A DNA stretch of 29,252 nt, from NCBI GenBank assembly GCA_020850025.1, contig JADZFI010000045.1, positions 1-29,252 of the forward strand. Direction: 5' to 3'. This document shows positions 8,927-29,200 of the stretch, one piece after another. Numbering within the stretch: the first letter of the stretch is position 1; each line of letters begins with the position of its first letter. Made by a program: the position numbers and the translations under genes. The DNA is from Saprospiraceae bacterium. GTDB taxonomy: Bacteria; Bacteroidota; Bacteroidia; Chitinophagales; Saprospiraceae. The notes below the pieces were generated by a model. The model did no database searches and was not told the origin of the DNA. It saw only the letters and a program-made list of their open reading frames with translations.

Positions 8927-11161
8927 ATGCAATCAATCAAATCATTATCAACCACTGTAATAGTGCTGCTTTGCTGTTTAACCGGTTTGTTGGCACAGCC
9001 CTACAGGCCCTCTGCTGCCATCAATGCCCGGGTAGAAACCCTCCTTTCCAAAATGACGCTGGAGGAGAAGATCGGGCAACTCACCCTGTACACCACCGAT
9101 TGGGGAAGCACAGGCCCCACCATACGCGAGGGTTATAAGGACGATATTCGCAAGGGCGCCTGCGGGAACCTGTTCAACAGCCACTCCACGGCTTTTGTGC
9201 GCGAATTGCAAAAGGTGGCGGTGGAAGAAACACGCCTGAAAATTCCGCTGCTGTTTGGCTTTGATGTCATTCACGGCTACAAAACCATTTTCCCCATTCC
9301 CCTGGGAGAGGCTGCCAGCTGGGATCTGGAGGCTATCGAGAAATCGGCCAGGGTAGCCTCTACCGAGGCCAGTGCGGCCGGCCTCAACTGGACCTTTGCT
9401 CCGATGGTAGACATCAGCCGCGATCCGCGCTGGGGTCGCGTCATGGAAGGCGCCGGCGAGGACCCCTACCTGGGCAGTCGCATAGCCGAGGCACGCGTGA
9501 AGGGCATTCAGGGCAAAAAATTAGGCGATCCGGATGCCATGCTGGCCTGCGTGAAACACTTTGCCGGCTATGGCGCGCCCATGGGAGGCCGCGATTATAA
9601 CACGGTGGATATGAGTGAAAAGTATTTCCGGGAATTTTATTTACCGCCCTACCAGGCCGCCATCAATGCCGGTGCCGCCACGGTAATGACCTCTTTTAAC
9701 GATTACGATGGCATTCCAGCCTCCGGAAGCAAGTTTCTGCTCGATCAGATCCTGCGGAAAGAATGGGGATTTGAAGGCTTTGTGGTAACCGATTACACCA
9801 GCATCAATGAAATGGTGATGCACGGGGTGGTGGCCAACGATAAAGAGGCCGGTGAACTGGCTTTGAACGCCGGCGTGGATATGGACATGCAGGGCGGCAT
9901 TTATCAGGCCTATTTGAAAAAATCGCTGCAAGAGGGCAAAGTGACCCAGGCGCAAATTGATGAAGCCGTGCGCCGTGTGCTACGCCTGAAATTTGAACTC
10001 GGCCTGTTTGAAGATCCCTACAAGTTTTGCAATGCCGAGCGCGAAAAAAATACCCTGCTTGCGCCCGCCCACCGCGCAGCCGCACGTGAGGTGGCACGAA
10101 AATCCATTGTCTTGTTGAAAAACGACCAGGAGGTGCTTCCATTAAAACCATCACAGAAAATTGCCTTGATTGGCCCACTGGCCGATAACAAAACGGAACT
10201 CATCGGCAACTGGAACGGCGCCGGTAATTTCAATGATTGTGTCAGTCTCAAAGAAGGATTAAGTGGTGCAAACATGCAATATGCCAAAGGCTGCGAGCTG
10301 GACGGCGCCGATCGTTCCGGATTTCAGGAGGCCCTGCGCATTGCCGGACAATCAGATATTATTGTGGTGGCAGTGGGTGAAAAAGCCAATATTAGCGGAG
10401 AGGCAACTTCCAAAACACAGATCAACCTGCCTGGCGTTCAGGAGGAACTGGTGCTGGAGCTCTGCAAAACCGGCAAACCGGTGGTGGTCGTGCTGATGAA
10501 TGGTCGCCCGGTGGTGATACCGGGCATTGCCGAAAAGGCAAATGCTATTTTGGAAACCTGGTGGCTGGGCACCGAAGCCGGCAATGCCATAGCCGATGTG
10601 TTGTGGGGAAAATATAATCCTTCCGGCAAACTCCCGATGTCGTTTCCGCGCTCGGAGGGCCAGATTCCGGTGTTTTACAATGAGAAAAGCACCGGCCGCC
10701 CCTTCGACCCCAATTCCAAGTGGACCAGCAAATACATTGACGAATCAAACAGTCCGCAATGGCCCTTTGGCTACGGCCTGAGCTATACCAGCTTTGCTTA
10801 CACTACGCCCAAAGCGAGCGTTGAAACCGCCACCACTCGCGGTATTCCATCCGGTAAACAGGTGAAAGTGTGGGTGAGTGTAACCGTAAGCAATACCGGA
10901 AAAGTAGCCGGCGAAGAAGTGGTGCAGTTATATATCCGCGACCTGGTGGGCTCTACCACCCGCCCGGTGAAGGCATTAAAAGGATTCCGCAAAATCATGC
11001 TGCAACCCGGAGAAAGTCGTGAAGTCCGTTTCGACCTTACGGCCGACGACTTGAGTTTTTACCGCAGTGATAATACATTTGGCATGGAACCCGGAGAGTT
11101 CGACATCATGGTGGGCGGCAGCTCCAATGATGTGAAATCGGTGCGTATCAGAGTGAATTGA
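8927..11161 (+). CDS. bglX: GH3 beta-glucosidase (BglX type), secreted/periplasmic
   Basis: Likely start MQSIK at 8927 (GTG at 8888 is the alternative). Motifs DVIHG, RDPRWGRVMEGAGEDPYL, CVKHFAGYG, GFVVTDY (nucleophile Asp), SGEA, PFGYGLSYT and a C-terminal Fn3-like domain GEEVVQLYIRD. Confidence 0.93.
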   Translation: MQSIKSLSTTVIVLLCCLTGLLAQPYRPSAAINARVETLLSKMTLEEKIGQLTLYTTDWGSTGPTIREGYKDDIRKGACGNLFNSHSTAFVRELQKVAVEETRLKIPLLFGFDVIHGYKTIFPIPLGEAASWDLEAIEKSARVASTEASAAGLNWTFAPMVDISRDPRWGRVMEGAGEDPYLGSRIAEARVKGIQGKKLGDPDAMLACVKHFAGYGAPMGGRDYNTVDMSEKYFREFYLPPYQAAINAGAATVMTSFNDYDGIPASGSKFLLDQILRKEWGFEGFVVTDYTSINEMVMHGVVANDKEAGELALNAGVDMDMQGGIYQAYLKKSLQEGKVTQAQIDEAVRRVLRLKFELGLFEDPYKFCNAEREKNTLLAPAHRAAAREVARKSIVLLKNDQEVLPLKPSQKIALIGPLADNKTELIGNWNGAGNFNDCVSLKEGLSGANMQYAKGCELDGADRSGFQEALRIAGQSDIIVVAVGEKANISGEATSKTQINLPGVQEELVLELCKTGKPVVVVLMNGRPVVIPGIAEKANAILETWWLGTEAGNAIADVLWGKYNPSGKLPMSFPRSEGQIPVFYNEKSTGRPFDPNSKWTSKYIDESNSPQWPFGYGLSYTSFAYTTPKASVETATTRGIPSGKQVKVWVSVTVSNTGKVAGEEVVQLYIRDLVGSTTRPVKALKGFRKIMLQPGESREVRFDLTADDLSFYRSDNTFGMEPGEFDIMVGGSSNDVKSVRIRVN

Positions 11162-11284
11162 CATTGGACTGTTAGACAATGGACGATGGACTTGGGCTCG
11201 GTAAGCTTGAAATGATTATTTACCCCGAGCCCAAGTCCATCGTCCAATATCCAACAGTCCAACGTCCAACAGTCCAACGTCTAA
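11157..11284. repeat. Inverted-arm 7/8-mer array element, TGGAC family, copy A (between bglX and susC)
   Basis: Left arm ATTGACA TTGGACTG TTAGACA ATGGACG ATGGACT; right arm AGTCCAT CGTCCAA TATCCAA CAGTCCAA CGTCCAA CAGTCCAA CGTCTAA. Perfect 22-bp stem 11180-11201/11225-11246 around the core TAAGCTTGAAATGATTATTTACC. Confidence 0.92.
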
Positions 11285-11299
11285 AATTAACCATTCAAT

Positions 11300-14230: not shown

Positions 14231-14343
14231 TTGGACGTTGGACTGTTGGACGATGGACGTTGGACTTTTGCTCGTTAAGCTTGAGATGATCATTTACCCC
14301 GCGCCCAAATCCAACGTCCATTGTCCAACTGTCCAACGTCCAT
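14231..14343. repeat. Inverted-arm 7/8-mer array element, TGGAC family, copy B (between susC and susD)
   Basis: Begins at the base after the susC TAA: TTGGACG TTGGACTG TTGGACG ATGGACG TTGGACT; core TAAGCTTGAGATGATCATTTACCCCGCGCCC; right arm AATCCAA CGTCCAT TGTCCAA CTGTCCAA CGTCCAT. Same core and orientation as copy A. Confidence 0.92.
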
Positions 14344-14371
14344 CATCTATAAATTGTAAACGATCAGGCTT

Positions 14372-15862
14372 ATGAACAAGCTTTTAAAATATCTCAGCGC
14401 AGCAGTTATGGTGCTGCTTTCCATCACCAGTTGCCAAAAAGACTTCCTGGAGCGCCGGCCGGAGGGTCGCCTCACTTTCGAGGAATTCTTTCAAATAGAG
14501 GCACATGCCATAGAGGCCACCAATGCCGTGTATGCTCAGTATCGGGAATTTGATCTGGTTGCTTTGCCTTATCTGGCTTGCACCGATATCCTGAGCGATG
14601 ATGCGGATAAAGGTTCTACCCAGAACGACGCTCCCTTGATCAGCGACCTGGATAATTTCACCCTGGATGCCACCAATCCTTATGTGGCGCCCGTGTACCG
14701 GGGCCATTACCGCGCCATTGCCAGGGCTAATCTGGCCATTGAAAACATACCGAACATTGAGATGGATGCTGCTCTGCGTGACCGGCTGGTGGGGGAGTGT
14801 AAGTTCCTCAGGGCGTATAGTTACCTGCTGCTGGTACAATGGTTTGGCGATTTGCCGCTCATCACCAGAACCCTTCAGGGCGACGAGTACTACTCCCAGA
14901 CCCGCCAGGATAAAAGTCTGATATATGATCAGATTGAGGCTGATCTCAAAGATGCCATCAATGCACTGCCCGATAAAGCCGGATATGCACAGGCAGATAA
15001 GGGTCGCGCTACCAAGGCGGCCGCACAGGGTCTGTTGGCCAAGTTGTACATGATCAAACACGATTGGGCGGCTGCGGAAACACAGTGCATGGACATCATC
15101 AACAGCACTCAGTACAGCCTGTTGACACGCTATGCCGACAATTTCCTGCCCGTGGGTGAAAACGGCGCAGAATCTATTTTTGAAATGCAGGCGGTGGCTC
15201 TGCCCACCCAGCAAGCTGCCGGGCCGGGCGCTTCTCCTTTCAATATGGTGCAGGGAGTGCGCGGTATTCCCAATTTGGGCTGGGGCTTTAACCGGCCTTC
15301 TGATAACCTGGTGTCTGCCTATGAAAATGGCGATCCAAGGCGGGAGGCCACGATCATTTATGTTGGGGAAATTCTGCCCGATGGGTCCACTCAGGTACAG
15401 GACAATCCTGAGATCATCAACGAGCGTTTCAACCAGAAAGCATGGGTGCCGGCCCACCCCGGTTTGCAGGACAATGGTCCGGGCAATATCCGGGTACTTC
15501 GTTATGCAGACATCCTGCTGTTGGCTGCCGAGGCTAAAAACGAACTCGGCAAATCCGGCGAAGCCTTGCCGCTCCTGAACCAGGTGCGCAAACGCGCCCG
15601 TGGTACCAATAACTTCATTCTGCCGGATATTACAGTAACTGACCAGGCCATGCTGCGCGAACGAATTTACCGCGAGCGCCGGGTGGAACTGGCCATGGAA
15701 CAACACCGCTGGTTTGATCTGCTGCGCTGGGGCCGGGCCGCTCAGGTGATGCAGGCAGTGGGCAAAGCCAATTTTGTGCCCGGCAAACATGAACTGCTGC
15801 CCATACCGCAAACTGAAGTGGATTTGACCAGCGGTCGAATTACGCAGAATCCGATGTACTAA
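14372..15862 (+). CDS. susD: RagB/SusD family glycan-binding lipoprotein
   Basis: Lipobox ITSC; SusD motifs IARANLAI, GECKFLRAYSYLLLVQWFGDLP, RYADILLLAAEA, ERRVELAMEQHRWFDLLRWG, QNPMY. Confidence 0.95.
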   Translation: MNKLLKYLSAAVMVLLSITSCQKDFLERRPEGRLTFEEFFQIEAHAIEATNAVYAQYREFDLVALPYLACTDILSDDADKGSTQNDAPLISDLDNFTLDATNPYVAPVYRGHYRAIARANLAIENIPNIEMDAALRDRLVGECKFLRAYSYLLLVQWFGDLPLITRTLQGDEYYSQTRQDKSLIYDQIEADLKDAINALPDKAGYAQADKGRATKAAAQGLLAKLYMIKHDWAAAETQCMDIINSTQYSLLTRYADNFLPVGENGAESIFEMQAVALPTQQAAGPGASPFNMVQGVRGIPNLGWGFNRPSDNLVSAYENGDPRREATIIYVGEILPDGSTQVQDNPEIINERFNQKAWVPAHPGLQDNGPGNIRVLRYADILLLAAEAKNELGKSGEALPLLNQVRKRARGTNNFILPDITVTDQAMLRERIYRERRVELAMEQHRWFDLLRWGRAAQVMQAVGKANFVPGKHELLPIPQTEVDLTSGRITQNPMY

Positions 15863-15922
15863 ACGGCTGACGGCCTACGGCCTACGGTTGACGGCTTACG
15901 GTTGACGGCCTACGGCTTACGG
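15860..15922 (+). repeat. Nine-unit degenerate heptamer array NNNACGG (single arm) starting in the susD stop codon
   Basis: TAAACGG CTGACGG CCTACGG CCTACGG TTGACGG CTTACGG TTGACGG CCTACGG CTTACGG, in exact 7-nt phase. Confidence 0.93.
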
Positions 15923-15984
15923 AGCCCCGGCGCTTTGATATCTACCGGGAAGGTGGTATGAGGCGCCGGGGCTTTTTGTTTTTT
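15923..15984 (+). terminator. Intrinsic terminator closing the PUL
   Basis: AGCCCCGGCGC (15923-15933) / GCGCCGGGGCT (15963-15973), an 11-bp stem with a 29-nt loop, followed by TTTTGTTTTTT. Confidence 0.8.
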
Positions 15985-16348
15985 GAGGGTAAAATGCATC
16001 CGGGAAACCCCTTATTTATGGTGAAAACGCAGGTTTTTGCTCCTTTTGTCAGATGGGCGGCATTTTGCCGATTTCGAAAATGCTCAGGCAATAATCCATG
16101 TGGCCCGAGGGTTTTACTATTGTTCCATTCATGATTACTTGCAAAAACCGACTACACACCGCTCTCCTGTTTGCGCATGATTGAAATGCTACCATTAACC
16201 TAATCCATAACCCAAGGCTGTTTTACACAGCCCGTTTTCTCCTACAGTTGAATGCCAGAAATTGCCGGGCTACTTCTCCCGGCATGGAGAGCGCTTGCGC
16301 TTTCTGAACAGACATTCTCATTTTTAACCTTCTAACTCATTTTCAATC

Positions 16349-17293
16349 ATGAACAGATCAAAATTTCAATGGCTCTTGCCGGTCTTCGCTTTGTTGACTT
16401 TTGGCATTATTTCCTGTTCAAAGGATCAGGATACCGATCAGGATAAAGCCCGACTTCAAATGGAAATTACTGATGGGCCCTGCGATGATCCCAACGTAAA
16501 AGCTGTTTATGTGACCATTGCGGAAGTCAAAGTGGACGGACAAACCTTCAGCGGGTTTACCACAAAAAAAACCATTAACCTCCTGGCATACCAGAAAGGG
16601 GAGGTAGCCGCTCTGGGGCTGGGTGAATTGGAGGCAGGCGCTTACCAAAACATTACCCTCGTGTTGGATGCCCAGACAGATGCTCAGGGGAATGCGCCTG
16701 GCTGCTATGTGGAAACCTTTGACAATGTGAAACACGCGCTTACCAGTAATGCGACTATGACCATTACTACCGCAAAAGACTTTACGCTGTCGGCCGGTTC
16801 CACCACACAACTAGTGCTTGATTTCGATTTGCGCAAGGCAGTTCAATATTCAGGCGGAAGCGCTTCGGATCAGTTTGATTTTGTGACATCCGCCAATCTC
16901 CAGACAGCTCTCCGCGCAGTGGTTAAAACGCAGTCCGGACATGTGCAGGGTACCTGCCAGAATGCCATTGTGAATACCGATAAAATTGTAGCATTCGTGT
17001 ATAAAAAAGGCACATTTAATCGCAATGTGGAGCTTTCCTCAGAAAACGGCATTGCGTTTAAAAATGCTGTGGCCAGCGCCTCAGTAGAAGCCAACGGTTC
17101 CTTTAAAGTGGCTTATCTGGAAAGCGGCGACTATGAAGTACACTTTGCAGCGTATAAAGACCTTAACAGCGACGGGAAACTGGATTTCCAGGGAACCCTC
17201 ATTCTGAACAGCCTGTTAGACCTGGAGGATTTGCAGGTGGGCGCTAATGCTGAAGTGCAGCTGAGCCTGACGGTCATAGGAATCTTGCCCTGA
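16349..17293 (+). CDS. DUF4382-domain lipoprotein
   Basis: Lipobox IISC; DUF4382-type motifs ITDGPCDD..VKAVYVTI.EV.VD, INLL, LEAG.Y..I.L.L and LVLDFDL.KAV. Confidence 0.8.
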   Translation: MNRSKFQWLLPVFALLTFGIISCSKDQDTDQDKARLQMEITDGPCDDPNVKAVYVTIAEVKVDGQTFSGFTTKKTINLLAYQKGEVAALGLGELEAGAYQNITLVLDAQTDAQGNAPGCYVETFDNVKHALTSNATMTITTAKDFTLSAGSTTQLVLDFDLRKAVQYSGGSASDQFDFVTSANLQTALRAVVKTQSGHVQGTCQNAIVNTDKIVAFVYKKGTFNRNVELSSENGIAFKNAVASASVEANGSFKVAYLESGDYEVHFAAYKDLNSDGKLDFQGTLILNSLLDLEDLQVGANAEVQLSLTVIGILP

Positions 17294-17340
17294 TTTTTCC
17301 TGCCTTAATGTTCGCAGTTTACTGTAAGTGGTTTAAAAAC

Positions 17341-17376
17341 AAGCCATCCCGGTGTCCATCGGGGTGGCTTTGTTTT
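17341..17376 (+). terminator. Intrinsic terminator after the DUF4382 gene
   Basis: AAGCCATCCCG-GTGTCCAT-CGGGGTGGCTT (one G-U pair) followed by TGTTTT. Confidence 0.7.
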
Positions 17377-17671
17377 GTGTAGGAAGCATTTGTTGTGAAT
17401 ACGGTGTGGTCGTTCAGCGACAAAATCAGTACGTTGGTCTATGCCGAACATTTTCATGCAGCCTTCCTGTAACATGCAGCTCTTTGCCAGAGTCTGATTT
17501 GGCAGAGTTGAATTTTGATGGGGTTCAGAGGTGCAGCAGCAGAAGGCTTTTCCGTTCATCCTGAAAAAATGGCCTTTCATACATGAGAACTGGGTATTGG
17601 TAGGTTCTATGTTTTGCAAGTTACCGAAAGACTTCATCTTTGTATCGAAAACAAAAACACCCCTGCTATTT

Positions 17672-17714
17672 CTGGACATTGGACGTTGGATTTTTAGACG
17701 TTGGACATTGACGG
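17672..17714 (+). repeat. Orphan TGGAC-family array arm upstream of the TonB-dependent receptor gene
   Basis: CTGGACA TTGGACG TTGGATTT TTAGACG TTGGACA TTGACGG; no complementary arm seen nearby. Confidence 0.8.
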
Positions 17715-17748
17715 AGATTCGCGTTCGGCAGGGACAACTAATTAAGCT

Positions 17749-20214
17749 ATGAAATCAAATTACTTTCTGCCACTGGTGGTGGTAGTGCTCACCTCTTTGG
17801 GGGTTTCGGCACAAAAAATTGCCGGAACCGTGCTGGAAGCCAGTGGCCAGCCTGCCGGATATGCTACTGTGACCCTCCATCAGGTAACTGATTCCGTGCT
17901 GGTTAAAGGCGCCATCACCGGCGACGACGGGTCTTTTGAAATTCAGGGCGCTGCCGTCGGAAGATACTTTCTAAAAGCCAACCTTATGGGCGCCGGCGGT
18001 GAATCTACACCTGCTTTTGACTATGATGGCGGAAATAAGACCATAGAAGCCATTTCTCTCCGGTCTGATGAAAATAAATTGGCTGAAGTTACGGTCGTTG
18101 CCCGCAAACCTCCGGTAGAAGTAAAAGCCGACAAAACCATTCTCAATGTAGAAGGTACGGTCAATTCCACTGGTTTGAATGCCCTGGAATTGCTCCGTAA
18201 AGCGCCGGGCGTTACCGTTGATAACAATGAAAATGTAAGTGTCCGTGGTAAAAATGCCGTGAAAATCATGATCGACGGCCGGGATGTGCCGCTCGACGGT
18301 AAAGAGCTGGCGGCATTGCTGAAAGGCACTCAGGCTTCAGATATTGCCAATATCGAGATCATTTCCAACCCCTCTGCCAAATATGATGCAGCCGGTAATG
18401 CCGGGATCATCAATATCCGGATGAAGAAAAACAAGGCTTTCGGCACCAATGGCAACTTCGGGCTGGAAGGTATCTATGGCGAAACTTTTAAAGCCGGCGG
18501 CAACGTCAGCCTGAACCACCGGGCAAAGAAATTCAATGCCTTCGGGAGTTTTAATGCACACCATGGCGACTGGCACAACACCCAATACTTCCATCGGGAA
18601 CAATATCTGGATGACTTGCGGTCCGATGGACAGCAGGGAGAGGACTGGCGGGTATTTGAACAGAGCAACAAAGAATACAGCGAAAACAGATACCGGGGGT
18701 ATCGCGCCGGTGTAGACTGGTTCCTTAACAGCAAACACACGGCGGGGGTACTGGTAAACGGCAGCATGAACCCGGGAGGCTGGCACTCCAGCAGCATAAC
18801 AAAGATAAGCGATCTGCACAGCATTAACAGGATAGATTCATTGCTGGTGGCCACCAACGACATGGAAAACGACCGGAATGACCTGAACATTAACCTGAAC
18901 TATCGCTTTGCCGATACTGCCGGCCATACCCTGAATATTGACCTGGATAAGGGCTCTTATCGCATTCGCGGCGCCAGTTTCCAGCCCAACTATTACCGCT
19001 CTGCCGACAACTCCGAAATCCTGCGCGAGGCCATTTACCGAAATAGCACACCCACCGACATCAACATCATGACAGCGCGGGTGGATTACGAGCAGAAACT
19101 TTGGAAGGGTACGCTGGGCCTGGGTGGCAAGATTTCGGATGTGGAAACCTTCAACACCTTTGATTTTTTCAATGTGCAAAACGGCATTCCGGTGAAAAAC
19201 GAAACCCAGAGCAACTCTGTGGATTACAAAGAACGAACCAATGCGGCTTATATCAACTATAACCGGGCATTTGGTAAAAAATGGAACATTCAGGCCGGAT
19301 TGCGACTGGAAAACACAGATTACAAGGGTATAGGGAAGGATTCTGTGTTCACCAACAACTACACGGAGTTGTTCCCGAGTGCAGCTGTAACCTATTCCAT
19401 CAACAAAAAACTGGGTTTGAATGCTACCTACAGCCGTCGTATTGACCGGCCGAGTTACCAGGATTTGAATCCGTTTGAAAACAAGTTGGATGAACTGACC
19501 TACCAAAAAGGCAATCCCATGTTGTTGCCGCAGTTCACCAACTCTATCGAACTCAGCCCTACGTTTAACGGATTCCCGGTGCTTACCATCGGGTATAGCC
19601 ATACCAACGATGTATTCACCCAAATCCTGAAACGAGATGTTCGCGACACCCGGGCCACCTTCATGACACAGGAGAATCTGGCAGACCAGAGAAACTGGAC
19701 CATCAGCCTGAACGCCCCAACCCCAATAGCCAAATGGTGGGATGGCTTTGTGAGCATCACCGCATTCCGCAGCCATTTCCGGGCCGATTTCAGCACGCCG
19801 GAAACCCCGGATTTTGTGGTGGATCAGGCGTATAATGCCTTCAATGCCTTCGCGGAACAAAACATAAAGCTGCCCAAAGGCTTTGGCCTGCAAATTTCAG
19901 GCTGGTACAACAGCCGCGCTTTCTGGGGCACGCTGCGCAGCAAACCACAAGGCGCTATGGACATCGGCTTGCGCAAGAAAGTGCTGCACGACAAAGGCGA
20001 ACTGCGCTTGCGCGTAGGCGATGTGCTCGGAACAGCAGGCTGGGGAGGCGAAAACCTGTTCAGTCCCGGACTCAAAATGCTGGCCAACGGCACATGGGAA
20101 AGTCAAACGGTAACCCTCAATTTCTCCTACCGTTTCGGCTCCACCGAGGTAAAAGACGCCCGCCAGCGCAAAACAGGCCTCGAAGACGAGAAGAACAGAG
20201 TGAAAGGAAAGTAA
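17749..20214 (+). CDS. TonB-dependent receptor (outer-membrane beta-barrel family) with N-terminal carboxypeptidase-regulatory-like domain
   Basis: Signal peptide; LAEVTVVARKPPVEVKADK, LELLRKAPGVTVD, IMIDGR, IEIISNPSAKYDAAG..GIINI, QAGLRLENT, YSRRIDRPSYQDLNPF, GNP.L.PQFT, TLNFSYRFG. Confidence 0.9.
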   Translation: MKSNYFLPLVVVVLTSLGVSAQKIAGTVLEASGQPAGYATVTLHQVTDSVLVKGAITGDDGSFEIQGAAVGRYFLKANLMGAGGESTPAFDYDGGNKTIEAISLRSDENKLAEVTVVARKPPVEVKADKTILNVEGTVNSTGLNALELLRKAPGVTVDNNENVSVRGKNAVKIMIDGRDVPLDGKELAALLKGTQASDIANIEIISNPSAKYDAAGNAGIINIRMKKNKAFGTNGNFGLEGIYGETFKAGGNVSLNHRAKKFNAFGSFNAHHGDWHNTQYFHREQYLDDLRSDGQQGEDWRVFEQSNKEYSENRYRGYRAGVDWFLNSKHTAGVLVNGSMNPGGWHSSSITKISDLHSINRIDSLLVATNDMENDRNDLNINLNYRFADTAGHTLNIDLDKGSYRIRGASFQPNYYRSADNSEILREAIYRNSTPTDINIMTARVDYEQKLWKGTLGLGGKISDVETFNTFDFFNVQNGIPVKNETQSNSVDYKERTNAAYINYNRAFGKKWNIQAGLRLENTDYKGIGKDSVFTNNYTELFPSAAVTYSINKKLGLNATYSRRIDRPSYQDLNPFENKLDELTYQKGNPMLLPQFTNSIELSPTFNGFPVLTIGYSHTNDVFTQILKRDVRDTRATFMTQENLADQRNWTISLNAPTPIAKWWDGFVSITAFRSHFRADFSTPETPDFVVDQAYNAFNAFAEQNIKLPKGFGLQISGWYNSRAFWGTLRSKPQGAMDIGLRKKVLHDKGELRLRVGDVLGTAGWGGENLFSPGLKMLANGTWESQTVTLNFSYRFGSTEVKDARQRKTGLEDEKNRVKGK

Positions 20215-20356
20215 GTGTTTGAGTTTACGAGTGTTCGAGTGTTCGGGTTGGCGCTCGGCTTGGTAGTTCAAGGAGTCTTTGCAAAAAGGCGTCAGCCTTA
20301 GAAAATACCAGGCCGAACGCCAACTCAAACACTCGAACACCCAAATACTCGAACAC
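20215..20356. repeat. Inverted-arm octamer array element (GTGTTYGR family) directly after the receptor stop codon
   Basis: GTGTTTGA GTTTACGA GTGTTCGA GTGTTCGG + inner arm GTTGGCGCTCGGCTTGGTA (20247-20265); 40-nt loop; inner arm TACCAGGCCGAACGCCAAC (20306-20324; 17/19 Watson-Crick complementary) + TCAAACAC TCGAACAC CCAAATAC TCGAACAC. Confidence 0.92.
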
Positions 20357-20399
20357 TTTTCAAGATAATGAAAGTTTGATTTGGTTTATCGGAGAAAGT

Positions 20400-20433
20400 A
20401 ACCCCGCCGTCGGAAAGATGCGCGGGGTTTTTT
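20400..20433 (+). terminator. Intrinsic terminator between convergent genes
   Basis: AACCCCGC (20400-20407) / GCGGGGTT (20422-20429) followed by further T residues. Confidence 0.7.
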
Positions 20434-20485
20434 ATTGATGTTATTATACCATACCGTATCGGGAAAATCGCCTTTGCAATAGTCT

Positions 20486-22978: not shown

Positions 22979-23004
22979 CGGTCGGCGGATTTTAAAGGCC
23001 CGAT

Positions 23005-23037
23005 CAAAATTAGGCCACACTACTCTCCTTCCCCGAA
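23005..23037 (-). promoter_or_regulatory. Candidate Bacteroidota sigma-70 promoter for the beta-helix gene
   Basis: Minus-strand TAATTTTG at 23012-23005 matches the TAnnTTTG -7 box, 26 nt before the ATG at 22978. The -33 box is only a partial match (TTCG, 21-nt spacer). Confidence 0.45.
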
Positions 23038-23064
23038 AAAAATGAGCTTATGTCGGATTTGCGG

Positions 23065-23172
23065 CTTACGGTAGACGGTGTATCCCGGAACTCCGTTCCG
23101 GGCAAACTAGCAGGGTCCGTCCACTGTAAGCCGTCCACCGTAAGCCGTCCACCGTCTACCGTTCATCGTTCA
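23065..23172. repeat. Inverted-arm NNNACGG heptamer element overlapping the 3' end of the adenylate cyclase gene
   Basis: Plus-strand arm CTTACGG TAGACGG (23065-23078); core with hairpin CCCGGAAC-TCC-GTTCCGGG; eight complementary units 23117-23172 that read TGAACGA TGAACGG TAGACGG TGGACGG CTTACGG TGGACGG CTTACAG TGGACGG on the minus strand. Confidence 0.9.
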
Positions 23173-25543
23173 CAATGAAATACATATCCACCTGTCCTTT
23201 GTTGTGTACGTCTTTTTGGCCGCGGTGTTCTGCTTTGTACAGGTGTTTGACAGCTTCTGCGGTGGCGTTGGAAATATTTACCCGCCCGGGTTCGCCGTGT
23301 TCTTCGAGGCGGGCTGCCAGGGTAACGGCATCTCCCCAGATATCGTAGGCGAACTTGTTTTTGCCAATTACACCAGCCATTACAGGGCCGGTGTGTATGC
23401 CGATGCGCATTTCGGTCAGGAAGGAGTCCGGGTTGGCCTCGCGACGATTTTTCAGCCATTCCGACATTTCAAGGGCGGCGCGTACGGCATCTGCGGCGTG
23501 GGTATCGTTGGGGATGGGCAGCCCTCCGGCACACATATAGGCGTCGCCGATGGTTTTGATCTTTTCCAGCCCATGGCGTTCGCATATTTCATCGAAAGCC
23601 AGGAAACATTCGTTGAGCTCGTCAATCAATTGTTCTGGAGTTAGTCGGGCAGATAAACTTGTGAAATTGACAAAATCACTGAACAGTACGGTGGCAGCAG
23701 GGTAAAAGCGCGGGGTGGCTTGTCCGCTGGTTTTAAGCTCGGCGGCAACCTCTTCCGGCAGGATATTGCGCAACAGGCTGTCGCTTTTCCGTTTTTCCTC
23801 TTCGATTTGGCGTTTTTGGGCCTGAATTTGCCGATTCTGACTTTCCACGCGGCGTTTGGCTCTGCGGGTAAACCACCAGGAAATACCTACCACTATAAGG
23901 AATAGTAACAGGGCTAATCCAAGAATATAGGCAAAGCGGCGGAAGCTGGCTTCCTGCTCGGTTTGGTAGGCTTGTTCCCTTTGGATGCGTTCCAGTTCCT
24001 GGGAGCGTCGTGTACTGTCGGCCTGGTTTTGGGCTCGTTCAATTTGTTCTTTTTCCCGCAGTTCAAGAATTACCCGGCTTTGTTTTTCGGCATTCAACTG
24101 CTCAGCTGCCAGTCGTAGCTGGGCTCGTGCCTGTAGCGCCTGCAGGGTTTGCTCCCGCAGTTTGGCCTGGTCGGCATCTTTTTGCGCTTCAAGCAGCCGC
24201 ACTTCGTCCTCCTTGCGTCGCGCTTCGAGCTCCAGATTTTTGTTTTGAAGTTCAAGTCGTTCCCTTTCAAATTTGACCTGATTCAATTCAAGGTCTTTAA
24301 AGTTTTGCCGGGCAATTAAAAACTTGATTTGTCCTTCGGCCGCAGAAAGCAGGGCGCGCTGTTGCGTCAAGCGTTGCTCCCGGCTCATGTCTTCCTGGCG
24401 TATTTCGTCCAGGACATTCAAATACGCCTGATAATATTCAAACGCTTTTTCGAAGTCATAAAGGTCGTGGTACAAATCAGCGCCAGTGCGGTAAGCCTCT
24501 GCAAGCACTTGTTTCTGTTTGGTATCTTTGGCGTATTGAATGGCTAGCTGGTTGTGGGAGAGGGCATTGTATATGTCGTTACTACTAAAATACACTGAGG
24601 CAAGGAGGTGTTCCAGATTGGCCAGGGAGGTGTAGTCTTTTCTGGATGCCAGCAGTTTCTGGGCTTTGAGCAGGTATTCAATGCCGCGTTTTGTTTCGCC
24701 GGTATTGTGAAGGGCTATGCCCATATTGGCCCATAAAACTTCCGGATAATCACAGGGGATATAGCTGCATTGCATCTCGGATTTCCGGAAATATTCCAGC
24801 GCCTTTGGGTAGTCTTTTAAACTGGCATATTGTCGGCCGAGGTTGTTGTAAAGAACTGACTGCTCCTGGGTGGTGCCGGAGGTTTCAATAATATCCTGGA
24901 GCAACAAATAGTAGTACAGACTTTTGCCGGCATCCCCGGCGATATCGTACGCTCTGGCGCGTTTCTGGTAGATTTGAACCAAACGCGGATTGTTTCTCTG
25001 CTCTTTGAATTTGGAGATCAGCCCCTTGTAAAGGATTTCCGCACTGTCGAAGCGCATGTCGTACAAACAGGCATCTGCAGCTTTTTCCCTTGTCTCGTCA
25101 TCTTCAGGCTTTAAGGCCAGCACATCCCGGTAATATCTGTGGGCTGCGGTGTACAATTTTTCCCCGAAGAACAGGTCGCCAATAGCGGTTTTGACGGTCA
25201 ATTGCATGGCAGTATTGCCGGAATTTTCCAGTTTGGCTTCGGCCTCCAGATAGTATTGAAGCGCCTCCTGCGGCCTGCCGGTGCGGGCACACACTTCGCC
25301 AATCATGACAAATGCGCGCACAATACCGCCATCATATCGCAAACTACGGGCCATGGAGAGACTGCGCTGAGCCAGGCTTTCCCGTTGAGAATCGCTGTGG
25401 GTGCGACGAGCCTGCTCCAAAACCTCATCCACCTCTGCCGTAATACGCTCAATATCTTCCGGCGTTTGGGCAAAAGCGGTAAAGGGGATGCTCCATAAAA
25501 GGCAATATGCCAGAGCAATTCTCGCTATAAGGAGTGGATTCAC
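23156..25543 (-). CDS. Class III adenylate/guanylate cyclase with N-terminal extracytoplasmic TPR region, coiled coil and single TM helix
   Basis: Signal peptide; TPR-like helices (LYNNLGRQYASLKDYPKALEYF); TM FAYILGLALLLFLIVVGISWWF; SDSLLRNILP; LFSDFVNFT; LEKIKTIGDAYM; RIGIHTGPVMAGVIG.NKFAYDIWGDAVTLAARLE. Confidence 0.92.
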   Translation of the reverse strand: MNPLLIARIALAYCLLWSIPFTAFAQTPEDIERITAEVDEVLEQARRTHSDSQRESLAQRSLSMARSLRYDGGIVRAFVMIGEVCARTGRPQEALQYYLEAEAKLENSGNTAMQLTVKTAIGDLFFGEKLYTAAHRYYRDVLALKPEDDETREKAADACLYDMRFDSAEILYKGLISKFKEQRNNPRLVQIYQKRARAYDIAGDAGKSLYYYLLLQDIIETSGTTQEQSVLYNNLGRQYASLKDYPKALEYFRKSEMQCSYIPCDYPEVLWANMGIALHNTGETKRGIEYLLKAQKLLASRKDYTSLANLEHLLASVYFSSNDIYNALSHNQLAIQYAKDTKQKQVLAEAYRTGADLYHDLYDFEKAFEYYQAYLNVLDEIRQEDMSREQRLTQQRALLSAAEGQIKFLIARQNFKDLELNQVKFERERLELQNKNLELEARRKEDEVRLLEAQKDADQAKLREQTLQALQARAQLRLAAEQLNAEKQSRVILELREKEQIERAQNQADSTRRSQELERIQREQAYQTEQEASFRRFAYILGLALLLFLIVVGISWWFTRRAKRRVESQNRQIQAQKRQIEEEKRKSDSLLRNILPEEVAAELKTSGQATPRFYPAATVLFSDFVNFTSLSARLTPEQLIDELNECFLAFDEICERHGLEKIKTIGDAYMCAGGLPIPNDTHAADAVRAALEMSEWLKNRREANPDSFLTEMRIGIHTGPVMAGVIGKNKFAYDIWGDAVTLAARLEEHGEPGRVNISNATAEAVKHLYKAEHRGQKDVHNKGQVDMYFIVNDER

Positions 25544-25566
25544 AACGCGAAGAAAAGGAATTTTTA

Positions 25567-25594
25567 CTTACGACTTACGATGTACGACTTACGA
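25567..25594 (+). repeat. Left heptamer arm of the four-helix-bundle cassette
   Basis: CTTACGA CTTACGA TGTACGA CTTACGA. Confidence 0.9.
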
Positions 25595-25601
25595 TTGGGG
25601 T

Positions 25602-25633
25602 GTTGCTTATTCCAGGGTTTTGGAATAACTTTG
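25602..25633 (+). promoter_or_regulatory. Candidate Bacteroidota sigma-70 promoter inside the cassette
   Basis: GTTG (25602-25605), 20-nt spacer, TAACTTTG (25626-25633), matching TTTG-N19-21-TAnnTTTG; ATG 21 nt downstream. An overlapping inverted repeat TTATTCCA-N6-TGGAATAA lies at 25607-25628. Confidence 0.6.
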
Positions 25634-25654
25634 GAAAATATTCAATTTATCCAA

Positions 25655-26050
25655 ATGAAAGAAGATCAGTGGAATCACAGATCCAAGCATTTTGCCTTGG
25701 CGGTTATTGAATTGGTAAGGCAATTTCCCAAAGATCCAGCTTATTGGACCATAGGCAGACAACTAATAGATGCTGCAACTTCCGCTGCAGCTAACTACAG
25801 GGCAATTAAGAGAGCCAAGTCTACTAAAGACTTTATCAACAAGCTTAAAATTGTTGAAGAGGAACTAGACGAAAGTATGTTCTGGTTGGAACTTACTGTA
25901 GGGGTTTCCACAGAGTGGAGAACTTCAGTTGCCCCGATTTATAAAGAGGCCAATGAGCTCTTAAGCATCACCATAGCCTCCATTAAGACCTCCCGTAACA
26001 AACAGAATAATGTACCAGGTACATCGTACATCGTAAGTCGTCCGTCGTAA
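25655..26050 (+). CDS. Four-helix-bundle protein (TIGR02436 / 23S rRNA IVS-protein / bAvd-like family)
   Basis: Likely start MKEDQ at 25655; the track ATG at 25580 lies inside the repeat arm. Family motifs RSKHFALAVIELVRQFP, IGRQLIDAATSAAANYRA..RAKS.KDFINKLKIVEEELDESMFWLEL, EANELLSI.IASIKT. Confidence 0.9.
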   Translation: MKEDQWNHRSKHFALAVIELVRQFPKDPAYWTIGRQLIDAATSAAANYRAIKRAKSTKDFINKLKIVEEELDESMFWLELTVGVSTEWRTSVAPIYKEANELLSITIASIKTSRNKQNNVPGTSYIVSRPS

Positions 26051-26065
26051 GTCGTCCGTCGTTAC
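26024..26065 (-). repeat. Right heptamer arm of the four-helix-bundle cassette
   Basis: Plus strand TCGTACA TCGTAAG TCGTCCG TCGTAAG TCGTCCG TCGTTAC, the reverse complement of left-arm-type units. It contains the stop codons of both adjacent genes (26048-26050 and 26062-26064). Confidence 0.9.
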
Positions 26066-27588
26066 TTTCCATTCCAGATCCTCATCTGAAGCGATTGCAA
26101 CACCATATCCCAAAGAACTTCGTAGGGGACAATTTCAATTTCATGAGCCTGGCTGGCTGAGTCGAGAGGTACCGTTCTGAGCTGCTTGTAATATCGTTCT
26201 GCTTTTCTGCTGGAGGCTTCCCGGTGGAAATTGGCCTGTGGCACCTGAAGCAGCATTTTGATGAAGCAATTGCTTCGGAAGGTGGCATCGCCTTTCAGGT
26301 AACGGCTGCAGTATTTTTCGATGCCTTCAATTCGTTCGGAGGATTTTTTGTAATCTTTTTCTGCAATAGCGTACAGGATTTGAGCAATGAGAACACTGAT
26401 ATTCATTCCGCTGCGGTCTTTGGCGAACAAGTTGATTTCGTTGATGAACTTGCCCATCTTGAACCGCCTTGATCGTTCGCTGAGGATATTATCCGGTATT
26501 TTGCCTATTTTTATCAGGTAGAAGATGTAAGCCTGGAAGATGCGCCACATTTCAACAATCTGGATTTGCTTCTCCTCAAATTTCGGGTAATTGGTTACCT
26601 TCTCATGCAGATGGTAGGCTTCCTCCCAGTGTTGGGTGCGCATGGCTAGCAGGAAAAACAATTCCTGTAATTTGAACCAGTTAAAGGAGCCTTCCTCAAA
26701 GAAGTATTCGCAACGCTCAATGGCTTTTTGCCCTTTCTCGAATTCGCCCAGCTGGAGGTAGCAAACAATCAGGTTGTAGTAAAAAACCTGTAGTGGCAAA
26801 CCGCTGTCGTAATCCTTTTTGTCAAAAAAGGCAATGGCTTCCTCACAAAGTTTGGCGGTATTGACGTAATCGTTGATGCTGTTGTAGATCAGCAAGTGCA
26901 CCATTCGGCCGAAAAGATGCAGTTTGAAGGAAGAACAGACGGCCATGAATGGCTTTAGCTCTGCATAAAACTCCTCCGCCTGCTGGGTTACTTCTTCTTT
27001 GGTGGCTTTGCTGTTGGTGTATTGCGCCATCAGTTCAGAGTAAAAAAACTCCGCCTTGCTTTCCATTTGCCAAATCTTCTCGTATTCGACATACTGCGCT
27101 TTAACCTCCTCATATTTGTCGAGATCACCGTCAACTGTGCTGTATTGTAGCCGTAAAACCCTCAGGATATCCAGAGTAAGCTCCGTAAATTCAAAATGCT
27201 TGGCATGCCTGAGCAAACGTTCCAGCACATCAATGCCGGTGATTTTGGCATTCCGTATCAGCAGGGTCATGGCTGCCGACCACTTTTTGTAACACTCAAA
27301 AAATGCTTTTTGCCGGTTGGTAAAGTTGGCGTCCTTAAAATCCAGCAGGAAAATGGCGTCGAGGAGTCGTTCCTTCAACTTATTTTTCAAGCTGGTAAGG
27401 TTCACATCGTCGCCGCCGCTTTTTTTGAACAAAGCTTTGGCATCTTCGTCCGTTTCTATTTTTTTATCAAGTAGGGCGTTAAAAAGGACCTCCATCTTTG
27501 AGTCAGGCTCAATGATGAATTTCAAAATTCCGCTTCCTTTTAACTTGGTCTTATTGACCAATCCCACAAGTTCCACGAGATCACGCAT
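26062..27588 (-). CDS. Hypothetical cytoplasmic all-alpha protein with TPR-like helices
   Basis: Long ORF with normal protein composition, likely start MRDLVE at 27588 (track start 27624); no signal peptide or TM; TPR-like FYYNLIVCYLQLGEFEKGQKAIERC. Confidence 0.8.
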   Translation of the reverse strand: MRDLVELVGLVNKTKLKGSGILKFIIEPDSKMEVLFNALLDKKIETDEDAKALFKKSGGDDVNLTSLKNKLKERLLDAIFLLDFKDANFTNRQKAFFECYKKWSAAMTLLIRNAKITGIDVLERLLRHAKHFEFTELTLDILRVLRLQYSTVDGDLDKYEEVKAQYVEYEKIWQMESKAEFFYSELMAQYTNSKATKEEVTQQAEEFYAELKPFMAVCSSFKLHLFGRMVHLLIYNSINDYVNTAKLCEEAIAFFDKKDYDSGLPLQVFYYNLIVCYLQLGEFEKGQKAIERCEYFFEEGSFNWFKLQELFFLLAMRTQHWEEAYHLHEKVTNYPKFEEKQIQIVEMWRIFQAYIFYLIKIGKIPDNILSERSRRFKMGKFINEINLFAKDRSGMNISVLIAQILYAIAEKDYKKSSERIEGIEKYCSRYLKGDATFRSNCFIKMLLQVPQANFHREASSRKAERYYKQLRTVPLDSASQAHEIEIVPYEVLWDMVLQSLQMRIWNGK

Positions 27589-27833
27589 AGGCCTGGAGTA
27601 ATTGATTATAAACAAATAAGGCACAAAGAGGTGGCTGTTGCTGTGTTTGTTGTTTCAGCATCAGGAACCTTGTTGGGCCCAGTGGACCCTAAATCGGATG
27701 GGAATAAAAAACGGGGTGAAGAAGAAAACGGGAATTTAAAAGGTTGCTCTTTTCCGTTTCATCATACTACCGAAGGCCGGATTAAAATGCATACGGGATG
27801 CAATAAAAAGTTCGGATTATGTAAATCTAGCCA

Positions 27834-27866
27834 CAAAGGTACTTTTTCTCTTTAAAAGTGTTCCAA
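27834..27866 (-). promoter_or_regulatory. Candidate Bacteroidota sigma-70 promoter for the hypothetical/cyclase genes
   Basis: Minus-strand TACCTTTG at 27841-27834 matches TAnnTTTG; TTG at 27866-27864 has a slightly long 22-nt spacer; implies a leader of about 240 nt. Confidence 0.4.
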
Positions 27867-27952
27867 CTTTATGCCAACGTCTTTTAAACGTCAGCAAGAA
27901 TACAATTAACGGCGTGAAATGACGTTGAAGCGGTCGTATTGTTAAAAAATTA

Positions 27953-29143
27953 TTATAGAAAACTGAGCGTCGGGAAGCTGTTTTTCAAAATTTTTTGGTC
28001 ATCTGCTCCCAACCACTGCCGAAGCAAAGTTGCATAAACTTGCCGAAAGTCAACAAAAAATTTTAAATCCCCATCCTGAAGGTCGCCTAAATCCGGCATC
28101 GCATTGAGTAGTCCCTTCTCCCGAAGGCTGCCACCAAGAAATAGCATGCAATTGGCCGTACCATGATCGGTGCCTCCGGAAGCATTCTGCGCCACCCTTC
28201 TGCCAAACTCGGAGAAGGTTACAACCAGCACCTCGTTCCACTTGCCATTGGCTTTCATATCGGCTGCAAAAGACAAAAGCGCATCGTTCAGCTCCTGAAA
28301 CAGGCGCTTCTGCTGTCCATCCTGATTGATATGGGTGTCAAAACTTCCCAGTGAAGCGTAATATACAGAGGTGTCGGTATCTGCCAGAATCAGGGAGGCG
28401 ATGGTTTTGAGATCCTTGCCAAGGCCGGTGGCAGGGTAGGTGACCGTGCTGGGGCGCTTTTTACTCTGCTCAAATAAATAATCGGCTGAGGACAAAGTTT
28501 CGGCCATGGTTTTATACAGGTAGTCCACGGGCGCTTCATCACTTTCCGACTTGCCCCTTGCCGCACTATAGGCAGAGAAATACGGACTCCGCGTACTCTC
28601 ATGCAGCCGCCTGGCATCCTGAAATGCGAGTCCTTTGGCGTTTTCTCCCTTGAGCGCCAGACTTAAAGTATCGTCCAGCTCCAGCCCCGCAGCCGGCCGA
28701 CCGGCACAGTGGGCATCCAGATAGCGCCCCAGCCAGCCCGTTTCCCAGTAGGCATCAGAAGGGCTGCCGCTGTGCCAAATGTCCATGCTACGGAAATGAG
28801 AGCGGTCGGGATTGGGATACCCCACACTGTTTAGCACTGCCATGGCGCCATCGTCCCATAGCGACTTAAGGCCGCTCAAGGTTGGATGTATGCCGGCCTC
28901 GTCCGTGAGCCTGAGGGCTTTGTCCGGCTTGATGGCCAGGCGCGGTCTTTCCCGGTAGTACACATCATTGCGTAAGGGAATAATGGTATTTAACCCGTCA
29001 TTTCCACCACTCAACTGAATGATAACCAGCTTGCGACCATTCACCGGCATTGCCCCGGGCGTTTCCAGGGCTTTGAGGAACTGTGGCATCATCAGGGCTG
29101 CCGTTGCCAGAGAGCCAGACTTGAGAAAATCGCGACGAAACAT
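27953..29143 (-). CDS. DUF1501-domain protein with twin-arginine (Tat) signal
   Basis: Likely start MFRRDFLK at 29143; the track extension to 29203 runs through the repeat arm. Motifs LVIIQLSGGNDGLNT, GYPNPDRSHFRSMDIW, GWLGR, GSFDTH..Q, SEFGRRVAQNASGGTDHG, VDFRQVYATLL..WLG. Confidence 0.92.
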   Translation of the reverse strand: MFRRDFLKSGSLATAALMMPQFLKALETPGAMPVNGRKLVIIQLSGGNDGLNTIIPLRNDVYYRERPRLAIKPDKALRLTDEAGIHPTLSGLKSLWDDGAMAVLNSVGYPNPDRSHFRSMDIWHSGSPSDAYWETGWLGRYLDAHCAGRPAAGLELDDTLSLALKGENAKGLAFQDARRLHESTRSPYFSAYSAARGKSESDEAPVDYLYKTMAETLSSADYLFEQSKKRPSTVTYPATGLGKDLKTIASLILADTDTSVYYASLGSFDTHINQDGQQKRLFQELNDALLSFAADMKANGKWNEVLVVTFSEFGRRVAQNASGGTDHGTANCMLFLGGSLREKGLLNAMPDLGDLQDGDLKFFVDFRQVYATLLRQWLGADDQKILKNSFPTLSFL

Positions 29144-29151
29144 GATTGAGA

Positions 29152-29200
29152 GTGTTTGAGTGTTTGGGTGTTTGAGTGTTCGAGTTGGCGTTCGGCTGGG
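29152..29200 (+). repeat. Second octamer-family arm, just upstream of the DUF1501 start
   Basis: GTGTTTGA GTGTTTGG GTGTTTGA GTGTTCGA followed by GTTGGCGTTCGGC, which matches the inner arm of the element at 20215-20356. Confidence 0.88.

Follow-up and report, generated by a model that had tools for sequence, protein, structure and literature searches.

Phased arrays of 7-9-nt units at open reading frame boundaries in a Saprospiraceae genome, and their tie to PF05635 four-helix-bundle cassettes

Why should the spacers of a single contig carry, one after the other, short tandem arrays that so often begin in the stop codon of the neighbouring gene? The question is raised by a stretch of 29,252 nucleotides (nt) from a Saprospiraceae bacterium (contig JADZFI010000045.1 of assembly GCA_020850025.1), called the window in what follows, in which a preliminary description had noted eight intergenic sites with phased arrays of 7- or 8-nt units. 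Tandem Repeats Finder and direct reading of the sequence recover such arrays at all eight sites. The reading that we favour, with roughly even confidence, is that they are the paired or solo arms of a short-unit system with many families, whose full copies are cassettes holding a gene for a four-helix-bundle (4HB) protein of family PF05635, and from which the copies without a gene are derived.

The window is the whole of contig C45 of G000, a fragmented metagenome-assembled genome (MAG) of 3.41 Mb in 531 contigs, with 50% G+C and a completeness of 76%. Its spacer DNA, 337 kb in all, contains 467 arrays of period 7, 8 or 9 that have three copies or more; a first-order Markov simulation gave 1. 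If multiples of these periods are admitted and arrays merged, the whole genome contains 1029 arrays, 645 of them in the 10% that lies outside long open reading frames (ORFs). The idea of a single consensus, NNNACGN, survives in part: it fits the units listed for the window, but it has only three informative bases, and the genome contains at least nine unit families. The trinucleotide ACG is found in about 69% of the period-7 arrays; the remaining 31% or so (GGACATT, GGACAAT and similar units) lack it, as do all the 8-mer and 9-mer families. NNNACGN is thus a low-information overlap of three families, with no common ancestor sequence behind it.

The families differ in their fixed core, spacing, loop core and cargo. 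Units of period 7 include GGACATT, GGACGGT, GGACGTT, ACGACTT and ACGGCTT, those of period 8 are GGTGTTTT, GAGTGTTT, AAGGCACN and CGCAGAGG, and the 9-mer is AATGTGGGG. Runs of three G are absent from the main units TGGACGT, CTTACGG, CTTACGA, GGTGTTTT and AAGGCACG, and present only in the AATGTGGGG family. What the families have in common is a design: a fixed core of 4-5 nt, together with about three weakly constrained positions of low information. The cores are spaced strictly by 7 nt in the ACGG family (457 of 475 intervals) and by 8 nt in the GTGTT and AAGGCRC families, the GGAC family mixing 7 and 8. Arms span 2 to 18 units of 7-9 nt, and the median number of units per array is 3-6, depending on the family.

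The evidence that ties these arrays to a gene starts with a complete cassette at 25566..26065 of the window. Its left arm, made of ACGA units, extends over 25566-25597 and its right arm over 26019-26065 (arrays 25566-25595 and 26024-26062 in Tandem Repeats Finder). The loop holds a gene of 131 amino acids (25655-26050, plus strand), whose product matches PF05635 above the Pfam cut-off (E 8.4e-11), with PDB entry 2RLD (E 1.7e-13) as the nearest solved structure. The right arm does double duty: it begins at the TAA of the gene for a 520-aa protein on the minus strand, and it also encodes the tail of the 4HB protein. The other seven sites of the window have no gene in their loop.

This arrangement is general. 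In G000, all four PF05635 genes lie between inverted arrays, and the arrays belong to four different families (ACGA, ACGG, GTGTT and ACATGAGT). PF05635 genes are present in 37 of 41 genomes of the genus, and 32 of the 33 loci examined have inverted flanks of 7-9-nt units. The claim of a genome-wide system of elements, with arms of phased units and loops able to carry cargo, stands. The literature library searched held no paper tying PF05635, TIGR02436 or GxxExxY to such repeats. The GxxExxY family (PDDEXK_3, PF13366) is an alternative cargo: of its two genes in G000, C206:2086-2841 and C39:3725-4334, one lies between inverted arrays, here of 15-nt units, and the other is accompanied by 9-mer arrays on a single side.

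With protein identities of about 60%, each clade of 4HB proteins retains a unit sequence of its own. On a maximum-likelihood tree of these proteins, the five recurrent unit labels require 4 changes, the minimum possible, against a mean of 9.7 when labels are shuffled, and none of 200 shuffles reaches 4; kin share labels, and the test bears on co-inheritance and conservation, not on binding. Identity is 57% between proteins flanked by the same unit and 26% between other pairs. Related units occur in sister clades, as in TTGTTGAT, GGTTGATRA and TGAGGATT, or in ATTGGTT and TGGTGAT. Cassettes of the ACGG clade are found at different loci in four species, with diverged leaders and unchanged units. 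ACGG arrays are present in all five genomes with an intact gene of this clade, relatives with such a gene having from 28 to 353 matches to the ACGG pattern, and none of the roughly 21 genomes that lack ACGG matches has an ACGG-clade gene. At G011:C160:781-1183, an ACGG-clade gene is split over two frames, probably by a frameshift, in a genome that has 5 matches to the pattern.

Genome-wide, about 189 pairs of arrays are inverted, with a median loop of 58 nt; among intergenic arrays, 260 are solo versus 213 paired. The statement that the ACG-type arm always lies 5' of its complement is correct throughout the window, and it extends to a rule of fixed polarity per family (26:0, 19:0, 11:0, 11:0, 21:1, 8:0 and 7:0): the G-rich arm is 5' in all families except AATGTCC, the sole one with a C-rich 5' arm. 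In 32 bracketed cassettes sampled across the genus, with about 20 unit families taken together, the left arm is G/T-rich. The loops cluster by conserved cores, one cluster having 22 members, another 10, and several others 2-3, which implies that at least part of the hairpins were copied as whole elements. One such core, in hairpins of ACGG and ACGATGG units, is a small palindrome, CCCGGAAC-NNN-GTTCCGGG (23082-23103 in the window); the same palindrome also occurs naked, in 2-3 tandem copies without arrays, in the susC-susD spacers of the relatives L118, L123 and G004 (L016).

We now turn to the sites of the window. Its genes form a locus with a glycoside hydrolase of family 3 (bglX), susC and susD, followed by genes for a DUF4382 protein, a TonB-type receptor, a T9SS (type IX secretion system) beta-helix protein, a tetratricopeptide repeat (TPR) adenylate cyclase, the 520-aa protein, which has no Pfam match, and a DUF1501 protein. 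Six of the arrays are located at stop codons, as had been described: those of bglX, susC, susD, the receptor, the cyclase and the 520-aa gene, the TAA of the last lying within the unit GTAACGA. The arrays that start at 17668 and 29150 are not anchored on a stop, and stand upstream of start codons.

Between bglX and susC lies a hairpin of the GGAC family, 11157..11284, with units TGGACGA, TGGACTGT and TAGACAA. Tandem Repeats Finder calls its array at 11231-11281, and the left arm can be read in the sequence from 11157. The hairpin begins in the bglX stop codon, TGA at 11159-11161, which is inside the unit TTGACAT, and ends 16 nt ahead of the susC ATG. Its conserved core, GGGCTCGG...CCGAGCCC, is the one common to the 22-member loop cluster, and its fold is -65.5 or -80 kcal/mol depending on the strand (z-scores -11.6 and -13.8). 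A second GGAC-family hairpin, 14231..14343 (arrays 14231-14265 and 14310-14342; z -12.6 and -12.2), starts immediately after the susC TAA, at +0, and between it and the susD ATG the native spacer, about 27 nt long, is preserved. The susD stop is followed by a solo array of nine NNNACGG units on the plus strand, 15860..15922 (15863-15922 in Tandem Repeats Finder), which starts in the stop codon itself: the TAA is the variable triplet of its first unit, TAAACGG. The array runs directly into the stem of a terminator-like hairpin at 15923-15984.

Upstream of the receptor gene, a solo GGAC-type array on the plus strand (TGGACAT and TGGACGT; 17668..17710, with the same limits in Tandem Repeats Finder) lies 38 nt ahead of the ATG. 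The same spacer contains an ORF of 124 amino acids on the minus strand (17305-17679), which overlaps both the array and a terminator-like hairpin (17343-17372) and is probably no gene; the spacer is 450 nt long. On the other side of the receptor gene, an octamer hairpin with GTGTTYGR units and inner stem GTTGGCGYTCGGC occupies 20214..20357 (arrays 20214-20245 and 20323-20357). It starts at +0 after the receptor TAA, and folds with -83.1 or -79.5 kcal/mol. Considered together, the three window hairpins have energies from -65 to -83 kcal/mol and z-scores from -11.6 to -13.8 on either strand.

The element next to the cyclase gene, 23064..23173 on the minus strand (array 23117-23173), is of the ACGG family and has unequal arms, with 8 units beside the cyclase stop and 2.5 on the opposite side of a palindromic core, CCCGGAAC..GTTCCGGG. 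Its asymmetric hairpin has z-scores of -3.3 to -4.8. Here the array enters the gene: the final residues of the cyclase, NDER, and its stop, the TAG of unit TAGACGG, are encoded by repeat units (23156-23173, minus strand). Finally, a second octamer element, 29150..29200 on the plus strand (array 29150-29185), has a left arm of GAGTGTTT octamers and an inner stem, GTTGGCGTTCGGC, identical to that of the element at 20214-20357; the end of the contig cuts off the rest. It is 6 nt upstream of the DUF1501 start, and C-rich in the sense of that gene. No Rfam family matches the window, with E values up to 1.

Is the anchoring on stop codons an accident of this contig? When distances to stop codons are plotted for all of G000, the bias is confirmed, far above what uniform placement would give: an array is found within -3 to +2 nt in 139 of 516 cases at stop codons versus 32 of 408 at start codons. 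Counted per spacer, 48% of the elements in tandem and 45% of those in convergent spacers start at most 2 nt from a stop. The proportion of abutting elements stays at 40-43% where 100 to 2000 nt of spacer remain, and uniform placement predicts 1-2% in such cases. Orientation matters: abutment on the stop is seen in 42-44% of the arrays whose G-rich strand has the sense of the gene upstream, and in 4-10% of those with the C-rich strand in that sense. At start codons, whose positions are uncertain in this analysis since it is based on crude gene calls, the picture is the mirror image, arrays that are C-rich in sense adjoining the start. The rule is polar: the C-poor strand reads away from the adjacent ORF boundary, be it a stop or a start. 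Stop anchoring is genuine, and is better described as the downstream half of a symmetric rule of ORF boundaries. The mechanism targeting gene ends that had been postulated is not needed, given this polarity at starts and the 15% of divergent spacers, which have no gene end, that are occupied (tandem spacers: 17%; convergent: 22%). Empty spacers are compact, with medians of 29-51 nt in G000.

The stop codon is often in phase with the first unit, as in TGA read as TGACGG or TAG as TAGACGG. The core stands at offset 2 or 3 in 22 of 30 ACGG arrays, in 12 of 20 GTGTT arrays and in 16 of 27 ACGA arrays, to which five more at offset 10, a unit farther along, can be added (21 of 27 in phase). The possibility that a G-rich arm is tolerated as a supplier of stop codons was considered and rejected: the density of stop triplets is 0.033 on the G-rich and 0.037 on the C-rich strand, against 0.045 in the background, and only 12% of arrays provide stops in all three frames.

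Orthologous junctions in relatives show presence and absence of elements, and they show that the arrays sit at native stops. All susC orthologues end in ...VTF-stop and most susD orthologues in ...Y-stop, and for the receptor and the 520-aa protein the last residue coincides with that of the orthologues. The cyclase is the only gene here with array-encoded residues, two to four of them: its orthologues end in ...IVSA-stop or ...VEA-stop, two residues earlier and in unrelated codons, and in G006, where the junction has an ACGATGG array, a longer tail, ..MDDGR-stop, is encoded by the array. Most relatives have no element between bglX and susC, and G006 has one of another family there. At susC-susD, G006 lacks an element, and its spacer of 25 nt can be aligned with the 27 nt found after the element in G000, which implies a clean insertion between the stop and an intact spacer. 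Among 77 junctions of susC with susD, 68 have no element, their median spacer being 38 nt; each of the seven hairpins begins between -1 and +6 relative to the stop and leaves 29-73 nt before the susD ATG.

The 81 susD orthologues, from MAGs of uncultured Saprospiraceae and Lewinellaceae (Bacteroidota), give a wider view of one slot. An array is present within 300 nt after the stop in 21 of them, and starts within 9 nt in 14 of the 21. At least eight unit families are represented (ACGG, AGTGATG, TGATGAA, GTTCGTT, GCAGTGG, CAAAGGG, AGTCCTG and GGGTGAA): close relatives have 0, 3.5, 4, 9 or 10 ACGG or ACGA units, and distant relatives other families. The slot after the receptor holds three families in three species (G000, G011 and G004), the right flank TTCAAGA being common to G000 and G011. 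The cassette at 25566-26065 is absent from the corresponding junction of G004, and both G006 and G004 have other hairpin families after the same stop. At both of the junctions studied in this way, the leftover spacer is as long as an empty one normally is, or else the array leads from the stop directly into a terminator stem.

Action at the RNA level had also been proposed, and we found no evidence of it in the stability of folds, the G-U pairs, the strand of solo arrays or the runs of T. Among 84 hairpins between co-directional genes, the sense strand is the more stable in 41 and the antisense strand in 43, and G-U pairs number 367 in sense versus 415 in antisense, with no bias toward the transcribed strand. 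Arms match their own partner at 0.84-0.92 versus 0.79-0.91 for arms of other copies: the pairing of arms follows from a common vocabulary of units, without compensatory change. Solo arrays between co-directional genes show no strand preference (G-rich strand in sense 62, in antisense 56), and the pattern of an intrinsic terminator, TTTT at most 12 nt downstream, follows 25 of 333 hairpin ends, or 8%. Once transcribed, paired arms must form stems of 30-60 bp, and no selection for such stems is detected. Nothing here points toward a role at the RNA level, with which the data nevertheless remain compatible.

How could such a system work? Arms would come paired, as a long hairpin, or solo. The full copies would be cassettes with a small PF05635 gene in the loop, sometimes with a GxxExxY gene, and the gene-less hairpins and solo arms, which outnumber them by about 100 to 1, would behave like non-autonomous derivatives. 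Elements do come and go between species, different families alternating in one slot. The 4HB protein may recognise its cognate units, and a multimer with one core per subunit would fit the core-plus-spacer design. As for the stop codons, the base that follows them may simply be the first unconstrained position, a permissive slot at which insertion, array growth and spacer loss would all end. We favour this explanation because spacers are very short and the spacer left over is of normal empty length; it is the most likely origin of stop anchoring, a mechanism that recognises stop codons being less likely. It is tempting to go further, and we do so tentatively: PF05635 proteins may be sequence-specific multimers that bind the 7-9-nt units of their own clade, each subunit on one core, and drive or maintain the spread of polar arrays at ORF boundaries, with a stop placement arising from some process coupled to leaving an ORF and not from tolerance alone, in which case the cyanobacterial short tandemly repeated repetitive (STRR) sequences, the heptamers of Xanthomonas and Nostoc, and the intervening sequences of ribosomal RNA (rRNA) would all be one system.

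Several observations weigh against the cassette reading. GGAC, the largest family of G000, has no gene-bearing copy in this incomplete genome, and in four fragmented genomes (G006, G232, G231 and G234) with more than 130 ACGG matches each, no ACGG-clade gene was found. The match between clades and units would also result from co-inheritance of gene and arms, and the binding of units by 4HB proteins is something that we infer. No target-site duplication is visible at the sole clean pair of empty and filled sites (susC-susD), and no transposase is present in any long-loop copy. A permissive slot explains by itself neither the phase lock nor the 40% abutment in long spacers. The stop statistic, lastly, lacks replication: samples of 400 kb from G007, G187 and G006 yielded 5 period-7 arrays, 13 and 27 intergenic arrays, respectively, too few for a test, probably because long contigs are those without arrays.

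These difficulties must be compared with those of other explanations. Repetitive extragenic palindromic (REP) sequences near stop codons affect termination, a point in favour of selection at the RNA level, in which hairpins after stops would make the mRNA upstream more stable or modulate the termination of translation, and gene ends would be the target of a dedicated mechanism. Such an explanation would account for native stops abutted far above uniform placement, for a stop in phase with the first unit and for very stable stems, and the fact that most such repeats are transcribed in Xanthomonas (PMC4692102) is in its favour. We consider it improbable all the same: neither fold stability nor G-U pairs carry a signature of the sense strand, no compensation specific to an element links its arms, T-runs are scarce at hairpin ends, about half of the arrays are solo and unable to form hairpins, and divergent spacers are occupied as well. 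Moreover, the genes of REP-associated tyrosine transposases (RAYT) carry other repeats, and a machine working on DNA is unable to distinguish an in-frame stop from other TRR triplets.

A somewhat better candidate, although still rather unlikely, has the arrays serve the host as binding sites of the 4HB protein: a ring-shaped multimer would hold single-stranded RNA or DNA by one core for each subunit, in the way that the trp RNA-binding attenuation protein (TRAP) holds spaced GAG/UAG triplets, and arrays would label or insulate the limits of ORFs, for instance where a polymerase leaves a gene on one strand or the other, hairpins being the by-product of two boundary arrays that face each other. 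Units with a core and a variable spacer, their strict spacing and a median of 3-6 of them by family are what one would expect of such sites, and the symmetry of the polarity rule, the solo arrays as common as paired ones and the lack of arm-specific covariation all fit, as do the clades that track units and the five chains of entry 2RLD. However, conserved loop cores mean that part of the hairpins were copied whole, occupancy of junctions is patchy among close relatives, unlike that of a conserved regulatory site, arrays abound in assemblies where the cognate gene was not found, and the binding itself is putative. There remain ordinary slippage minisatellites in unconstrained DNA, whose positions would only reflect where such DNA exists. 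The number of units does shift fast at one site, as the susD slot illustrates, assemblies break at arrays and spacers are compact; but the same small set of unit vocabularies is used over and over, at hundreds of loci and in a fixed polarity, copies have conserved non-repeat cores in common, placement depends on orientation, and nearly all the 4HB genes examined (32 of 33) are bracketed by inverted arrays whose units match the protein clades. This last explanation is already disfavoured, and we regard it as very improbable.

The arrays have practical consequences. They rewrite the C-terminus and stop codon of some genes, such as the cyclase, insert double-stranded stems of 30-60 bp into operon transcripts, for example those of this glucan-utilisation locus, and break short-read assemblies. 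The sequence of the window is present in public runs from activated sludge, wastewater and freshwater, and Logan contigs of four independent runs stop at arrays (11112-11252, 14261-14327, 23103-23220 and the contig end, 29197), and so does the MAG contig itself. Since contigs break at arrays, these are under-represented inside the long contigs of short-read assemblies, and any census is biased. The joints of Logan contigs have sides shorter than 30 nt, which makes them repeat artefacts, and the contigs have no indels. A public run labelled as RNA cannot show transcription.

Among known systems, REP sequences each consist of one imperfect palindrome of 20-40 nt and are linked with a Y1 transposase. 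Like them and the bacterial interspersed mosaic elements (BIMEs) that they form, the elements described here are extragenic palindromic repeats, frequent after stop codons; unlike them, their arms are arrays of variable length and unit order, not a single palindrome with a conserved head sequence. The REP-like membership once suggested for the arrays is not borne out: beside the three PF01797 (RAYT-type) genes of G000 lie different, REP-like repeats, rich in GC and about 37 nt long, instead of 7-9-nt arrays. These genes for RAYT-like Y1 transposases are outside the window (C254:3996-5140, C409:11572-12260 and C400:10767-11470); on C254, the gene stands between inverted copies of a unit that includes CGGTAGCC and measures about 37 nt, and a classical REP system coexists with the short-unit arrays in G000. 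MITEs (miniature inverted-repeat transposable elements) resemble the arrays in having many short non-coding copies with inverted ends and a common core, few gene-bearing copies, and presence or absence between relatives, but the ends here are variable-length arrays, not fixed terminal inverted repeats, and neither a transposase nor a target-site duplication is seen.

The ORF-bearing intervening sequences of 23S rRNA, in Coxiella and Leptospira, are the origin of the Pfam name 23S_rRNA_IVP; the class is recognised by its insertion into a helix of 23S rRNA, from which RNase III removes it. They have in common with our cassettes the inverted flanks that form a long stem, with a small PF05635 gene in its loop, and differ in that the copies of the window lie between protein-coding genes and have arms made of tandem short-unit arrays. 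To our knowledge, PF05635 proteins have been named '23S rRNA intervening sequence protein' for 30 years with no function, and reports of heptamer repeats in bacterial genomes go back to 1990, with no mechanism. The STRR sequences, or long heptanucleotide simple-sequence repeats, of cyanobacteria were reportedly described by Mazel in 1990 and Mrazek in 2007 (cited in PMC4679880). Both they and the arrays of G000 are tandem heptamers that abound between genes, are distributed patchily and by lineage, and have no known mechanism; STRR sequences are described as simple arrays, and hairpin pairing, cargo genes and the ORF-boundary rule are outside their definition.

The statement that nothing of the kind had been described in Bacteroidota was too strong. 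TAACTGA direct repeats are reported from Beggiatoaceae, Cyanobacteria and five Bacteroidetes (MacGregor 2015, PMC4679880): these too are mostly intergenic heptamer arrays, near starts or overlapping upstream stops, with the differences that there is one exact unit, that most are a few nt upstream of starts, and that almost no inverted pairs occur. Closest in placement, which is thus already published, are the heptamers GGGAATC of Xanthomonas and GGGGA(C/T)T of Nostoc, intergenic tandem repeats present in hundreds of copies (Rehm et al. 2015, PMC4692102). Their G-rich strand is in sense near or overlapping a stop, or in antisense just upstream of a start, and they form many convergent inverted pairs and are themselves rarer between divergent genes; their function is unknown, and neither of the two papers gives a mechanism (PMC4692102, PMC4679880). 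The arrays of G000 share with them abundance, strand-dependent placement at stops and starts, convergent inverted pairs and a lower frequency between divergent genes. What sets ours apart is the presence of at least nine families in a single genome, degenerate units, 8-mers and 9-mers, conserved loop cores, most families without tracts of three or four G and hence without G-quadruplex potential, and the tie to PF05635, which is not reported in that work (PMC4692102). The arrays belong, as a variant, to the same unexplained class as the STRR sequences and the Xanthomonas heptamers, and are most likely arms of 4HB cassettes and of their gene-less derivatives. To this class the present analysis adds evidence of native stops and of slot reuse at two orthologous junctions, a tree of clades and units within one genus, the rejection of stop supply and the absence of an RNA-sense signature: in this genus, heptamer-type repeats and PF05635 proteins are tied together, each protein clade keeping its own unit.

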